Below, piece after piece: positions 32,068 through 36,579 of a stretch of 64,000 nucleotides of DNA. Source of the stretch: an uncultured delta proteobacterium. GTDB lineage: Bacteria > Myxococcota_A > Polyangia > Polyangiales > Polyangiaceae. Numbering within the stretch: position 1 is the stretch's first letter; each line of letters opens with the position of its first letter. Below the pieces are notes generated by a model. It made no database searches. It was not told where the DNA came from and saw only the letters and a list, made by a program, of their open reading frames with translations. The translations under genes and the position numbers were made by a program. The DNA is taken from positions 1 through 64,000 of the forward strand of contig CAVQUB010000008.1 in NCBI GenBank assembly GCA_963716725.1. Direction: 5' to 3'.

Positions 32068-33573
32068 GTGGAGGCGGATTCGCGGAACCCGTTGGAGCTC
32101 GAGCGCGACCTTTACCGGCGTTTGCTCGAGCTGGGCGAGCGCGAGGACGTGCTGCCCTTCCTCGACGAGGCACTGAACCTGGTGGTCGAGGTCACGGGTG
32201 CTCGGCACGGATACCTCGAACTCGGGTCCGGCGGCACGCCGAGGTTTTGGCTCGCGCGGGCCCTCGACGACTCCGAGGTGGAGCGTGTGCGCAGCGAGCT
32301 CTCATCCGGAATCATCGCCCGCGCGCTCTCGACGGGCAAGGCCGTGAGCACCGCCAGCGCCATCGACGATCCACGCTTCGCGGCCCAGGGCAGCGTCCAA
32401 GCTCAGAGGATCCGCGCCGTGCTCTGCGTTCCGATCGGCAGCCCTTCGGTCGGTGTCATCTACCTGCAGGGTCGATCCGAGCCGGGTCCCTTCCCGGAGC
32501 GCGATCAGAAGCTGGCCGGAGTGTTCGCGCGCCACCTGGCGCCCTTCGTCGACCGCTTGCTCGCGAATGAGACCGAGACACGCCGGCGCGACCACACCGC
32601 TGAACTTCGCGCGCGGCTCGCCGTTGGAGAGTTGATCGGGGCCAGTCAGGCGCTCGCGAAGCTGTTTCAGGGCATGCTCGTCGCGGCGCCCGTTGAGATG
32701 TCGGTGCTGATCGCGGGCGAGAGCGGCACCGGAAAGACGGCAGTGGCCCGTGCGCTTCACGCGAGTTCGCTCAGGAGTCACGGACCCTTCGTCGAGCTGA
32801 ACTGCGCCGCCATCCCGTCGACGCTGTTCGAGAGCGAGCTGTTTGGCGCCGAGAAGGGCGCGCACAGCACCGCCGACCGACGCATCGAGGGCAAGGTCGA
32901 CGGGGCTGCCGGCGGCACCCTGTTCCTGGACGAGATCGCGGAGATCCCTCTGGAGACTCAGAGCAAGCTCCTGACTTTCTTGCAGAGCAAGACCTACTAC
33001 CGCCTCGGCAGCAGCAGCCCGAGGACCGCGGACGTGCGCATCGTGGCGGCCACCAACGTGGACCTGCGCGAACAGGTCGCGAAGAAGCGCTTCCGCGAGG
33101 ACCTCTTCTATCGACTTGGCGCCCTCGAGCTCCACGTGCCGTCGCTGTCAGCGCGGAGAGACGACATTCCCGCCCTGGCTGACGCGGTGGCGCGCCGCAC
33201 CAGCAGCGCACACGGTCGCGATATTCCGCTCACGCGCGCTGCAAAGCTGGCGCTCTCCGAGGCAGAGTGGCCGGGCAACGTGCGCCAACTCGAGAATCTC
33301 GTGCAGCGCGGGTGGGCCACGGCTTCGGCGCTCGGTGCGTCTGCAATCGAGCCCAAGCACCTGTTCGGCGACGCGCCGGCGCAGGCTTCGGACGGGGACG
33401 CCCAGGCGCTCTCGTATCACGACGCCCTGCGCAGCTTTCAACGGCGCTTCATCCGCGAAGCGCTGGACGAGTGCGACTGGAACGTGACCGACGCCGCGCG
33501 TCGGCTCGAGTTGTCTCGGTCGCGATTGAACGAGCTGATTCGGTCGCTGGAGATCCAGCGCCCGGGGAAGTGA
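32068..33573 (+). CDS. GAF-AAA+-HTH sigma-54 enhancer-binding protein (GAHSTA loop variant)
   Basis: GAF, GESGTGKT, ESELFGAEKGAHSTA, LFLDEI, FREDLFYRL, WPGNVRQL, Fis-type HTH. Confidence 0.92.
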   Translation: MEADSRNPLELERDLYRRLLELGEREDVLPFLDEALNLVVEVTGARHGYLELGSGGTPRFWLARALDDSEVERVRSELSSGIIARALSTGKAVSTASAIDDPRFAAQGSVQAQRIRAVLCVPIGSPSVGVIYLQGRSEPGPFPERDQKLAGVFARHLAPFVDRLLANETETRRRDHTAELRARLAVGELIGASQALAKLFQGMLVAAPVEMSVLIAGESGTGKTAVARALHASSLRSHGPFVELNCAAIPSTLFESELFGAEKGAHSTADRRIEGKVDGAAGGTLFLDEIAEIPLETQSKLLTFLQSKTYYRLGSSSPRTADVRIVAATNVDLREQVAKKRFREDLFYRLGALELHVPSLSARRDDIPALADAVARRTSSAHGRDIPLTRAAKLALSEAEWPGNVRQLENLVQRGWATASALGASAIEPKHLFGDAPAQASDGDAQALSYHDALRSFQRRFIREALDECDWNVTDAARRLELSRSRLNELIRSLEIQRPGK

Positions 33574-36089
33574 GCTCCGCGGTGGGCGGTAAGGAACCAG
33601 AGCCTCCGGATCTCGTCGGAGGATTCCGAGTGATCCGCCGTATTGGCGGCGGCGGCATGGGCAGCGTTTACGAGGGCGAAGAGCCCAATATTGGGCGCCG
33701 GGTGGCGATCAAGATCCTGCGCGCGCGTCTGGCCGACGATCCGGAGTTCGTCGAGAGATTCCGCAACGAGGCGCGGCTGGCCAACGCCGTGCAGCATCCC
33801 GCCATCGTCGATGTCTTCTCCTTCGGGCGCCTCGACGATGGACGACCCTTCTTCGTGATGCCTTTGCTCGAGGGCGAGTCGGTGCGCGAGCTCTTGGACC
33901 GGGAAGGCAGCCTGCCGCCCGAGCGCTGCTGGGCCATCGTTCGGGTAGTCGCGTCGGCTCTGGGCGCGGCCCACGACGCGGGGCTCATTCACCGCGACCT
34001 CAAGCCCGACAACGTCTTTCTCGAGCGCAAGGGAGATCTCGAGCGGGTTCGCGTGATGGACTTTGGCATCGCGAAGAGCGTGGCAGCGTCAGGCGACGCG
34101 CTGGCCCCCAAGACGCAGACCGGAATGCTGCTGGGCACGCCCGCGTACATGGCGCCGGAGCAGTGGTGGGGCGCCAAGCTGGACGCACGCGTCGATCAGT
34201 ACGCGCTCGGCGCGCTGTTGTTCGAGATGCTCTCGGGCCAGCCGCCCTTCGATCCGAATCACGAGTCGGGGGTGATGAAGCTGCACCTGCACGAACCGCC
34301 GCCGAGCTTGGCGAGTCGTGGCACCGAGTCGTCCGCCGAGGCGGACGCGCTCGTCCGGAGGCTGCTCGCCAAAGATCCGAACGATCGCTTTGCCTCGATG
34401 AACGAGCTGATCGCCGCGGGGGATGCCTGCTGGGCGGCCGGATCGACCGAGGCGACGGAGATCGGACCTGCGGCCACCGAGCTCGGGCCGATGCCCGCTG
34501 CGTCGGTGGGAACTAGCCCCGAAGCCGCGCAGCCCTCCAGGGCCCCCGCAGTTCCGTCGGCGCCACTTCGACGGAGTTGGCTGGTGACCTACGTGGTGTG
34601 TGTGATGGCTGCGCTGGGAGCCCTCTGGATCGTGGGCTACGCAGGGCCCGCACGCTGGGATCCGGTCGAGTGGTTTCGGATCTCTGGCTTCGCGGCCTTT
34701 CCTGCGGTGGCGGTCTTCGTGGTGGCGGCGGTGGTGCTGCCGGTCCTCGTGCTCGCGCGGGATGGAGCGCGGCGCTTCCGCGTCCTCACGCTTGGCCTCG
34801 CGATCGGACCTGCGCTGATCGGCGCCGTCGGAACCTATGCCGGTTGGGAGACCGTCACCCGCGCTCTCGCCGACGTCGACTCGACCCAGCGCTTCGAGGT
34901 CTTCAACGAGGGCAGCTACGAAGCTGGCGCCAATCGCTTCTTGGGATTCGGACTGAGCGTGGGCTTGTGCCTCGCGCTCGCAGCCGTCCCCGGCGGGCTG
35001 GGCATGGCCGGGTCGAGCGCGGAAGATCGCGGCCGGCGCCTCGCGCCCTCCCTAGCCGTTGCAGTCGCGCTCCTGGCCATCATCGCGGGCTTGCTGGGCG
35101 CGCCCAGCGCCGTCCTGGTGGCCGTGCCCGCGGCGCTGTTTCTGTGGTCGTCGCGCCTGTTTCCCATCGGCGGTGCCGATCTTTCGAGTCAAGTCGGACG
35201 CAGCGTGTATGCCGCCTTTGCGTTGTTCTTCGCGTCGGCAACCGCCATCGAAAGGGTGGCCGCGCGCCGGTCTGTGCTGTGGACCCTCGACGCGGGCCGC
35301 GCCGAGCGCATCCGGGAGATCATGGTGGCGGACTGGGAGCAGTCGGCGACCTGGGCTGCGATCTTGTTTGTATCTGTGACGGTGGTTGTCGTCCAGGGCC
35401 AGCGCCTGAGCGGCGCCCGTGACTTGTTTGGGCACCTTCGGCGGCACGCGCTGCTGGGCAGCATGCTGTTCGCCGTGATCGCCTTGGACCTCTCACTGGC
35501 CGCCAAGTTCGGGGCGACTGGCCGCGCCACGAGAGAGGCGCTGGCCGGGCAGTTTGCGCTGTTCGCCGGCCTCGATCCGCCGTCGACCGACATGCTTCCG
35601 AGCCATCGGCTCGAGCCGTCGCAGGGTGCCGCGCTGCAGGTCGCGCAAACCGGGGTAGCGGTGGATGGCCGGGAGATCACCCGCCTGAACGCCGCGGCGT
35701 CAACCGTGGGACGCGAGCGCCTTCAGAACGCGCTCTTCGACGCGCTGGCGCGAGCGTCGACCACCCCGCTGTCGTGCTTGGTCGATCGGAGGGTCACCTG
35801 GGCCGAGCTGCGCGAGCTCTTGGCCATCGCGCGACTCGCTGGCGCGACGGACGCCGAGCTGCTCTTCACTCGCGGTCCGGCGCCGATGATTCCGTCACGG
35901 GGTCCAGCGGAGGTGGGATGGATTCAACCGAAGGACTTCATCGCCGTCCGCGTGTCTTTGGCTGCCGATGGCATCGATCTCGATTCGAAGAAGCAGTTCG
36001 GCGAGCTCGCGGCCGAGCTTTTGGCCAGCGCCCACGGGCGCCAGCCCCTCGCGATCCGGGTGCCGGCTGGCCGGGATCCCGGACGCTGA
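33570..36089 (+). CDS. Ser/Thr kinase with multi-TM region containing ExbB/TolQ-like and ExbD/TolR-like modules
   Basis: GTGA overlap with the activator; intact kinase motifs (HRDLKPDN, DFG, GTPAYMAPE); C-terminal module assignment by eye. Confidence 0.85.
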   Translation: MSSAVGGKEPEPPDLVGGFRVIRRIGGGGMGSVYEGEEPNIGRRVAIKILRARLADDPEFVERFRNEARLANAVQHPAIVDVFSFGRLDDGRPFFVMPLLEGESVRELLDREGSLPPERCWAIVRVVASALGAAHDAGLIHRDLKPDNVFLERKGDLERVRVMDFGIAKSVAASGDALAPKTQTGMLLGTPAYMAPEQWWGAKLDARVDQYALGALLFEMLSGQPPFDPNHESGVMKLHLHEPPPSLASRGTESSAEADALVRRLLAKDPNDRFASMNELIAAGDACWAAGSTEATEIGPAATELGPMPAASVGTSPEAAQPSRAPAVPSAPLRRSWLVTYVVCVMAALGALWIVGYAGPARWDPVEWFRISGFAAFPAVAVFVVAAVVLPVLVLARDGARRFRVLTLGLAIGPALIGAVGTYAGWETVTRALADVDSTQRFEVFNEGSYEAGANRFLGFGLSVGLCLALAAVPGGLGMAGSSAEDRGRRLAPSLAVAVALLAIIAGLLGAPSAVLVAVPAALFLWSSRLFPIGGADLSSQVGRSVYAAFALFFASATAIERVAARRSVLWTLDAGRAERIREIMVADWEQSATWAAILFVSVTVVVVQGQRLSGARDLFGHLRRHALLGSMLFAVIALDLSLAAKFGATGRATREALAGQFALFAGLDPPSTDMLPSHRLEPSQGAALQVAQTGVAVDGREITRLNAAASTVGRERLQNALFDALARASTTPLSCLVDRRVTWAELRELLAIARLAGATDAELLFTRGPAPMIPSRGPAEVGWIQPKDFIAVRVSLAADGIDLDSKKQFGELAAELLASAHGRQPLAIRVPAGRDPGR

Positions 36090-36243: not shown

Positions 36244-36579
36244 ATGACGACGTATTTTCAAGACGGTGGTTACGCGATGTGGCTGATTCTGATCATCGCG
36301 CTCGGCTCGACCGCGGTCGCGGTGGCCAGCAAGGCCGAACGGCGATCGAAGGCGCTCTGGCTCGGCAGCTACGGGTCGCTGGTGGCGGGCGTCTTCGGCA
36401 TGTCCGCCGGCATGGTCGCGGTGAGCAGGAACATCTCGCGCTTCGCGGACAAGGGCGCAGCCGTCGCCGAGGGCCTGGGCGAGCTGAGCAACAACGGAAG
36501 CTTCGCCGCGATCCTCGCCGTGGTGCTCGCGGTCGCGGCGCTGATCACAGCCCCCAAAGCGACTCCTCAGAAGGTCTGA
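36244..36579 (+). CDS. Small 3-TM MotA/TolQ/ExbB-like membrane protein
   Basis: YFQDGGYAMWLIL…GVFGMSAGM…AVAEGLGELSNN; lacks the cytoplasmic domain. Confidence 0.6.
   Translation: MTTYFQDGGYAMWLILIIALGSTAVAVASKAERRSKALWLGSYGSLVAGVFGMSAGMVAVSRNISRFADKGAAVAEGLGELSNNGSFAAILAVVLAVAALITAPKATPQKV

Follow-up and report, generated by a model that had tools for sequence, protein, structure and literature searches.

What would a eukaryote-like protein kinase do with part of a proton-driven motor? The question is raised by three adjacent genes at positions 32068–36579 of a 64,000-nucleotide stretch of DNA (hereafter the window; forward strand of contig CAVQUB010000008.1, GenBank assembly GCA_963716725.1) from an uncultured delta proteobacterium of the order Polyangiales, family Polyangiaceae. 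The genes encode a sigma-54 enhancer-binding activator, a membrane Ser/Thr kinase and a small membrane protein that we call the mini protein, and a sequence-only reading of the window had taken them for a new signalling system in which ExbB- and ExbD-like modules are fused to the kinase. The only known setting of ExbD/TolR domains, to our knowledge, is the proton-driven motor (Ton, Tol and related stators); in the present case, an ExbD/TolR-like domain sits at the outer end of a eukaryote-like kinase. We find that the three genes form a signalling cassette, conserved among myxobacteria of the Polyangiaceae type from soil and water, and our results support homology, in both fold and profile, between the periplasmic domain of the kinase and that of ExbD/TolR. 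Profile comparison further identifies the mini protein as a paralogue of transmembrane (TM) helices TM2–TM4 of the kinase.

All three genes lie on the + strand. The activator gene (32068–33573) encodes GAF, AAA+ and Fis-type helix-turn-helix domains, as assigned by Pfam, and is followed by the gene for the 839-residue kinase (33570–36089, from its translation), whose GTG start codon overlaps the TGA stop codon of the activator gene, read as GTGA. These two genes are co-transcribed and translationally coupled. The third gene (36244–36579) encodes the mini protein, which has 111 residues and three TM helices. The sequence-only reading had described the overlapping activator and kinase genes, the three-TM mini gene with its motifs and a GG-N10-GC promoter ahead of it, and we located each of them, the promoter being CGGCACGCCTCTCGCA at 36168–36183. 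The segments it had quoted from the kinase were also found in the translation (EWFRISG... from 34668, FNEGSYEAGANRFLG to 34946, MLFAVIALDL from 35463, and LVDRRVTW...DAEL to 35861).

The Hanks-type kinase domain (33627–34397, residues 20–276; PF00069, E = 1.2e-45) follows an N-terminus, EPEPP..VGGFR, that is common to the orthologues, and displays the VAIK, HRDLKPDN, DFG and APE motifs, which are invariant in all six aligned kinases. Its best NCBIfam match is PknB_PASTA_kin (E = 6e-81, below the cut-off), which covers the kinase domain alone. The C-terminal 500 residues belong to no Pfam or NCBIfam family, the kinase C-terminus and the mini protein returning sub-threshold matches only (DUF6611, E = 0.005; Trep_Strep, E = 8e-4). 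Among 1.84 billion representatives, scanned in full, the C-terminus has 130 relatives at E ≤ 0.001, with 58 of these at E ≤ 1e-30. Because nearly all are 750–900 residues long and match over their own C-terminal 500 residues, we take them to be kinase fusions, and the five relatives returned by a word-indexed search all have kinase Pfam domains.

We modelled the kinase C-terminus with AlphaFold, using 60 relatives as the alignment, and obtained a confident model (pLDDT 94, pTM 0.92) comprising nine long helices followed by an α/β domain. The number of helices and the charges of the loops would place the kinase domain in the cytoplasm and the C-terminal domain in the periplasm. From the model we define four regions: module 1, made up of TM2–TM4 (residues 365–477; 34662–35000); a middle helical bundle, TM5–TM8 (residues 488–613; 35031–35408); TM9 (residues 627–657; 35448–35540); and the ExbD/TolR-like periplasmic domain (residues 685–767; 35622–35870), which is followed by a family-specific β-α-β extension to residue 839. 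Residue conservation across the C-terminus was counted in 61 sequences. The middle bundle has a conserved loop, R-x8-LW-x5-R-x2-R-x2-E, in which R562, W571, R577 and R580 are kept in 56–61 of the 61; it corresponds to no known family, and structure searches returned generic four-helix matches only.

The ExbD/TolR relationship was first apparent in the fold. A Foldseek search with the kinase C-terminus matched ExbD chains 8p9r_B (TM-score 0.78, r.m.s.d. 2.2 Å) and 8vgc_A (TM-score 0.76), both with a probability of 0.97, and also listed TolR (5by4); the 500-residue query gave no match at E ≤ 0.001, with ExbD matches at E of about 1. When the matches were re-aligned with VIA, ExbD/TolR chains took ranks 1–4 and 6 of 988, the best being 8p9r_B (Z = 6.5, r.m.s.d. 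2.0 Å across 72 of 73 residues), with 8vgd_B, 8vgc_A, 5by4, 8pek, 2jwk and 2pfu also listed. In a wide structure search independent of Foldseek, TolR 5by4 (Z = 6.5) was the sole α/β match among helical ones. The order of elements also follows the ExbD layout: from the nine predicted TM helices and the loop charges, TM9 is predicted to have a cytoplasmic N-terminus, with the periplasmic domain after it.

Sequence profiles point the same way. Comparison by hhalign of the C-terminal alignment with 39 ExbD/TolR sequences of the order gave a probability of 91–92% (E = 8e-7 to 1e-6), with P-values of 0.23–0.55 for the reversed-profile controls; against only the eight ExbD paralogues of the same genome, the probability was 43–49%. 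In the alignment, TM9 falls on the ExbD TM helix, LDPP on the ExbD ‘LP’ motif and VDR.V.W..(13)..AGA..ELL on the ExbD AD..V.Y...AG...L motif; two residues of the domain, D739 and G758, do not vary in any of the 61 sequences. Pfam does not register the relationship: PF02472 does not match the kinase at E ≤ 1, and its nine matches in a scan of the whole genome all lie outside the cassette. Nor did the C-terminal domain profile retrieve ExbD/TolR from the PDB sequences at E ≤ 10. The top PDB sequence match of this profile was 7uek_A (‘OT3’; E = 6.8e-6), which was matched twice on the conserved D..V.W....L..A...GA..ELL β-α unit; natural ExbD sequences were not matched by this unit.

One detail of the earlier proposal did not survive the alignment. 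The aspartate in the TM segment MLFAVIALDL had been read as the ExbD aspartate, but the column aligned by hhalign with the ExbD aspartate falls on a variable histidine or arginine just before ALLGS.... The conserved aspartate, D640, comes 13 residues after this column, at the opposite end of TM9, on the periplasmic side. This position is Asp in 51 and Glu in three of the 61 sequences.

The mini protein is modelled as three helices (pLDDT 86.9), with a predicted N-out/C-in topology, and has two invariant motifs, G-M-x-x-G-M and G-L-x-E-L-S-N-N-G. We found 69 relatives of about 110 residues, none with a Pfam family. Module 1 of the kinase also has three helices (positions 26–56, 65–94 and 99–138 of the AlphaFold fragment), and its conserved patterns are G-x-x-G-T-x-x-G-W and G-x-Y-E-A-x-x-x-R-F, with T422 kept in 52 and both G448 and E451 in 60 of 61 sequences. 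The mini protein had been described as showing the same pattern as the first kinase segment, and profile comparison shows that this likeness is true paralogy. A mini-protein profile aligned with kinase residues 365–477 with an hhalign probability of 93% (E = 2.7e-7), which became 95.9% (E = 5.2e-9) with 66 mini sequences, and plain profile hidden Markov models (HMMs) cross-match in both directions (TM-region HMM to mini proteins, E = 1e-9 to 2e-10; mini HMM to kinases, E = 2e-5 to 9e-5). Whether the two proteins bind was addressed by complex prediction with the kinase TM region (fragment 1–330) and the mini protein, which scored 0.00 in two runs without controls and so speaks neither for nor against binding. 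Separately, weak mini-like segments (E = 1e-7 to 1e-9) occur in reading frames of about 1000 residues in four genomes (G199:C114:173-481, G169:C148:22403-22723, G209:C1:42706-43065 and G089:C34:9031-9351), which suggests that other large proteins contain the same three-TM unit.

Are the three genes kept together? Synteny could have refuted the sequence-only reading, and instead the genes proved to be linked across three families of the order, and 16 distinct genomes have the full triad at a single locus (the window, G004, G005, G014, L036, L037, L039 with a 3.3-kb gap, L040, G210, G082, G103, G130, G135, G075, G117 and G110). Among 41 relatives, the C-terminal module is present in six genomes, and three close relatives (G004, G005 and G014) have activator, kinase and mini gene in the same order. 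Scanning species-representative genomes with the mini profile yielded 11 real loci, seven of which hold the triad (L030–L032, equivalent to G004, G005 and G014, together with L036, L037, L040 and, across its gap, L039). Three of the 11 (L033, L035 and L038) are without the kinase module, and one is on a contig too short to tell.

We then counted the genes in a sample of 251 genomes of the order. The kinase module occurs in 19 of these genomes (5 of 64, 11 of 31 and 2 of 32 by family, the window's genome not counted), and the activator gene lies directly upstream in 15 of the 18 assessable kinase loci. Such an arrangement might reflect co-inheritance only, with a small molecule sensed by the activator's GAF domain without help from the kinase, which would act on other substrates. 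GAF-type activators such as NorR do sense ligands directly, and three of the 18 kinase loci are without the activator, but, in orthologues as in the window, the stop codon of the one gene overlaps or closely neighbours the start codon of the other, and the activator stays directly upstream of kinases down to about 30% identity in three families. We therefore regard co-inheritance as a most improbable account of the gene order.

The mini gene follows the kinase gene in 11 of 16 assessable loci, and the mini family as a whole is present in 49 of the 251 genomes (a count that includes G146, a genome marked as unpublished that enters no other result). At E ≤ 1e-5, a mini gene was found in 18 of 19 kinase-positive and in 31 of 232 kinase-negative genomes; as related genomes are not independent, these co-occurrence counts are descriptive only. 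The distribution bears on a second alternative, in which the kinase would be a sensor of a periplasmic ligand or partner, its ExbD-like domain binding a peptide strand or peptidoglycan, and the mini protein would be an envelope-stress effector that never touches the kinase, its likeness to TM2–TM4 being a mere relic of duplication. Known binding partners are the TonB D-box for ExbD and the cell wall for TolR, and the closest structural matches of the kinase's periplasmic domain are ExbD domains solved with bound partner peptides. The mini family is also wider than the kinase family (49 as against 19 genomes) and occurs in other contexts that keep the sigma-54 promoter, as in L033 and L035, where it precedes two M16 peptidase genes, and in L038. 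Set against this, kinase and mini gene co-occur in all but one of the kinase-positive genomes and are adjacent in most of the assessable loci, and the conservation of the motifs that module 1 has in common with the mini protein is suggestive of a common function or interaction as opposed to drift. We consider this alternative doubtful, though deserving of serious attention.

In L033 (6989-10477) and L035 (3263-6692), the mini homologues are about 45% identical, have no kinase or activator gene nearby and are directly followed by the two M16 (insulinase-type) peptidase genes, with the sigma-54-type promoter kept.

How, then, would the mini gene be controlled? The predicted sigma-54 promoter was placed in the -24 GG/-12 GC frame and is conserved in orthologues: its core, CGGCACGCC..TCGCAA, is identical in the four close orthologous loci, where the flanking intergenic DNA has diverged. 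We regard the features of this locus as beyond chance. The strict promoter pattern is found in five of nine more mini loci, for a background of 0.012 per 300 nucleotides (nt), and of the remaining four, three can be read as keeping TGGCAY-N5-(GCGCA or AAGCT), with L107 having the -24 half alone. Another 11 mini loci, the kinase-free ones among them, all have a YGGYAY-N6/7-YGCW site 45–99 nt before the start codon, so that a sigma-54-type promoter precedes nearly all of the 21 mini genes examined. The loose pattern YGGCAY-N5-YYGCW occurs five times on the two strands of the 64-kb window, compared with 2.3 expected.

Upstream of the promoter, the inverted repeat GGCCGGGATCCCGGAC (36069–36084) is a candidate upstream activator site. 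It conforms to the family pattern G[GT]CCG-N6-CGGAC, which is conserved in orthologues and occurs 112–254 nt upstream of 12 of the 21 mini genes, where the background is 0.016 per 350 nt across all of the sequence analysed. The repeat overlaps the last codons of the kinase gene, and its position there may be the reason that the GRDPGR tail of the kinase is conserved. Another palindrome, GGGATCCC, was considered as the enhancer and rejected, being present in six of the 21 loci only, so that G[GT]CCG-N6-CGGAC fits better. Further perfect GTCCG-N6-CGGAC repeats are present at 34331–34346, inside the kinase gene, and at 4018–4033 of the window, either by chance or as extra activator sites.

The activator has the domains expected of a sigma-54 enhancer-binding protein in Pfam, namely GAF_2, Sigma54_activat (PF00158, E = 1.7e-61), AAA_lid_14 and HTH_8 (E = 2.6e-7), with GESGTGK and DEI motifs in the AAA+ domain. 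In NCBIfam it comes closest to NorR (E = 1e-86) and NifA (E = 1.2e-84), and all matches there fall below the curated cut-offs. The loop that contacts sigma-54 reads GAHSTA where GAFTGA is the known motif, and does so in eight of eight orthologues (that of the window and seven others, with 57–78% overall identity). The activator thus offers a natural GAHSTA variant of the sigma-54-touching loop, and in the literature searched the string was not found in that sense.

RNA from one wastewater study touches the mini gene. Contigs from two metatranscriptome runs cover 36237–36500, 36502–36652 and 36228–36488, with one to three differences from the window; their cover is limited to the mini gene, and they start past the promoter. 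From this study, one DNA contig extends over 34137–37001, and DNA runs, in contrast to the RNA, cover the entire locus. The RNA cover gives a weak hint of mini-gene expression, since the ends of transcripts are not visible in contigs and DNA can be carried over into RNA libraries. The activator and kinase genes had no RNA contig cover, a lack that proves nothing, apart from pieces of 35–40 nt in conserved motifs, with a likeness of 90–95%, which derive from other organisms.

The remaining structural question is whether the three-TM unit shared by module 1 and the mini protein descends from ExbB/TolQ, as the sequence-only reading had proposed. Its model was that sensor and mini protein form a true stator-like proton channel in which ExbB-like subunits surround ExbD-like helices, that ion flux or a conformation dependent on the proton-motive force (PMF) sets kinase activity, and that the activator induces extra channel subunits. 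The solid ExbD/TolR homology of the C-terminal part favours this model, as does the topology of module 1 and the mini protein, which are predicted to have three TM helices and, by the positive-inside rule, to be N-out, like ExbB/TolQ. Stator proteins head the natural fold matches of both units: the mini protein matches ExbB 6ye4_A (Z = 10.4 across 110 residues), ZorA (Z = 9.8 and 9.6; by Foldseek 8vvi_C, TM-score 0.66/0.73, probability 0.98, E = 0.9) and MotA (Z = 8.2), and module 1 matches TolQ/ExbB (Z = 5.2–5.8 by VIA, r.m.s.d. 3.5–4.0 Å across 116–120 residues, model residues 20–141). Protein-language-model neighbours of the two queries are short proteins, 17–20% with PF01618, and are partly annotated with that family (21 of 30 hits at a score of 0.92; 0.86 in the other search). 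In a genome-wide search with the mini HMM, TM1 of a genuine ExbB-like protein ranks second (E = 0.17). The G-x-x-G-T/M-x-x-G pattern is paired by hhalign with ExbB GLxGTVxG, and the conserved glutamate with ExbB GIxEA, so that T422 and E451 mimic the G-T and E motifs of ExbB.

These likenesses did not, for the most part, outperform their controls. Designed three-helix bundles score as highly for the mini protein (Z = 10.5) as ExbB does, and for both units the fold Z-scores are no higher than for unrelated helical bundles. By hhalign, the mini protein matched four to five ExbB-type paralogues of its own genome with a probability of 48–59% (P = 1e-4; reversed control 0.005–0.1), and module 1 matched ExbB-type profiles at P = 0.002–0.03 (reversed 0.16–0.69). 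The larger, 33-sequence ExbB/TolQ/MotA profile weakened the mini signal to P = 0.005, compared with 0.003 for its reversed control, and cutting out the ExbB cytoplasmic domain did not help (0.0015 compared with 0.0028). The TM1–TM2 loop is nine residues in the mini protein (SKAERRSKA) and about nine in module 1, leaving no room for the large cytoplasmic domain of the ExbB type. PF01618 matched neither the kinase nor the mini protein; it has seven places in the genome scan, none in the cassette, and is absent from the 25 families listed, of 34 in all, for 19 mini proteins at E ≤ 10. The mini profile had no match among PDB sequences at E ≤ 10, and a profile search with the mini alignment retrieved in-family proteins only, none with PF01618, and thus gave no bridge to that family. 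For the three-TM unit, then, topology, folds and language-model neighbours are compatible with ExbB/TolQ kinship, but the reversed-sequence controls were not beaten and no Pfam match was found. We put true ExbB homology at about an even chance, an estimate that the firm ExbD relationship of this same chain did most to raise. Elsewhere in the window's genome, an ExbB/TolQ-like gene at G000:C32:316247-316532 (L006/L007) has its Pfam match in two adjacent frames, which looks like a frameshift or an assembly error.

As an account of the cassette, we consider the stator-like channel unlikely. Apart from the equality of the ExbB comparisons with their controls and the failure of PF01618 and PF02472 to match at any level, the proton-binding aspartate of ExbD is not kept at the aligned position, the sensor is a compact nine-TM monomer with no obvious pentameric pore, four extra TM helices intervene, and the locus has no gene for a partner of the TonB/TolA type. 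A working proton channel in the sensor is possible but unsupported, given the displaced key aspartate, the compact bundle of the monomer and the unproven ExbB homology. The stator-like geometry could conceivably be recovered in another way, with two kinase chains, contributing two ExbD-like helices and two ExbB-like units, joined by three sigma-54-induced mini proteins in a 5:2 ring whose assembly or ion flux reports PMF or envelope state to the kinase domains. We think this very unlikely; if true, a Ton/Tol/Mot motor would have been converted to a signal receptor, with its stoichiometry set by its own output. The sensor is best regarded as built from parts of the Ton/Tol/Mot stator type, certainly so for its ExbD-like part and perhaps for its ExbB-like part, with these parts re-used for signalling and not as a working 5:2 motor. 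Should the ExbB link be true, motor parts would have been recruited for signalling.

With modest confidence, we favour a reading in which a sensor kinase with an ExbD-like part signals through the activator to a sigma-54-driven mini protein. The periplasmic ExbD-like domain, along with a conserved polar cluster of T422, E451, R456 and D640 at the outer face of the membrane, would sense an envelope or periplasmic cue, and the kinase would then act on the co-encoded activator. The activator, in turn, would bind the GTCCG-N6-CGGAC repeat and open the sigma-54 promoter of the mini gene. The mini protein would be the output and probably also a feedback or accessory subunit on the sensor TM bundle, as it is a copy of sensor TM2–TM4 and so probably associates with it.

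Several observations weigh against this reading. The activator gene is absent upstream in three kinase loci (G153, G152 and G116), and five loci have no mini gene within 2–3 kb (G153, G178, G152, G208 and G191), although all five of these genomes have a mini homologue elsewhere (E = 1.9e-34 to 1.8e-4). Mini-like genes are also found in the 31 kinase-negative genomes and beside M16 peptidase pairs; therefore, the mini protein has an independent role, and binding to the kinase is not required. A search for the Sigma54_DBD and Sigma54_CBD domains did not detect the gene for sigma-54, rpoN, in the 84%-complete assembly of the window; five of five triad-bearing relatives have it. Since GAHSTA departs from the GAFTGA motif that contacts sigma-54, the activator's competence with sigma-54 is an assumption. 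Lastly, the RNA evidence consists of contigs from two runs of a single study, and RNA libraries can contain DNA.

The neighbours of the three genes in the window (a rhodanese gene, a LuxR-like gene and a second kinase gene) were considered as members of the cassette and rejected, having no counterpart in related loci. The second kinase, also a membrane Ser/Thr kinase, is encoded at 38168–39634, and adjoining it is an open reading frame (39785–41842) with about 14 tandem GGSGGAT heptapeptide repeats, around which the G+C content is 0.74 (near 40000–41000).

Micro-synteny around myxobacterial kinase genes is noted in a review (PMC8538405). In the literature searched, at title and abstract level, we found no description of the cassette, of a kinase–GAF activator pairing in Myxococcus or of an ExbD/TolR–kinase fusion. 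The DNA itself displays the likely wiring of the cassette (from activator and enhancer repeat to sigma-54 promoter and output gene), which makes it a tractable case for linking the many Ser/Thr kinases of myxobacteria to their many sigma-54 activators.

Each part of the cassette has known counterparts. The activator shares its GAF-AAA+-HTH architecture with NorR and NifA and differs from them in its matches, which are far below the curated cut-offs, and in its GAHSTA loop. In the arrangement of a sigma-54 activator and a -24/-12 promoter before the gene of a small inner-membrane protein, the cassette resembles the phage-shock genes, where PspF is a sigma-54 activator driving small membrane-protein genes such as pspG. 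It is plausible that envelope or PMF stress is a theme common to both, although the cassette activator has a GAF domain and GAHSTA, its partner is a kinase and not PspA, and the mini protein, having no Pfam match, is unlike the Psp proteins. PknB-type receptor Hanks kinases have one TM helix and PASTA repeats; like them, the cassette kinase would have a cytoplasmic N-terminal kinase domain, a membrane anchor and an extracytoplasmic sensor, but it has nine TM helices, an ExbD-like domain and a sigma-54 activator as its pair.

The ExbB-ExbD, TolQ-TolR and MotA-MotB stator units are 5:2 proton-driven motors. The kinase shares with them a TM helix, an ‘LP’ motif and a periplasmic α/β domain with D..V.[YW]...AG, and module 1 and the mini protein, as predicted, would share a three-TM, N-out topology with these units and have ExbB-like G-x-x-G-T and acidic-residue motifs. 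Unlike the stator units, the cassette has these parts fused behind a kinase in one chain with four TM helices between them, and is without a Pfam match, the aligned ExbD aspartate, the ExbB cytoplasmic domain or a TonB, TolA or flagellar partner; the ExbB homology of its three-TM unit is also without statistical support. Finally, MgrB is a small membrane protein with feedback on the sensor PhoQ, and the likeness here is one of proposed logic only, in which an induced small membrane protein acts back on its sensor. The cassette differs in that the mini protein is, by its profile, a paralogue of the sensor's own TM2–TM4, and it would thus exemplify a sensor that has, as its output gene, a partial copy of itself.

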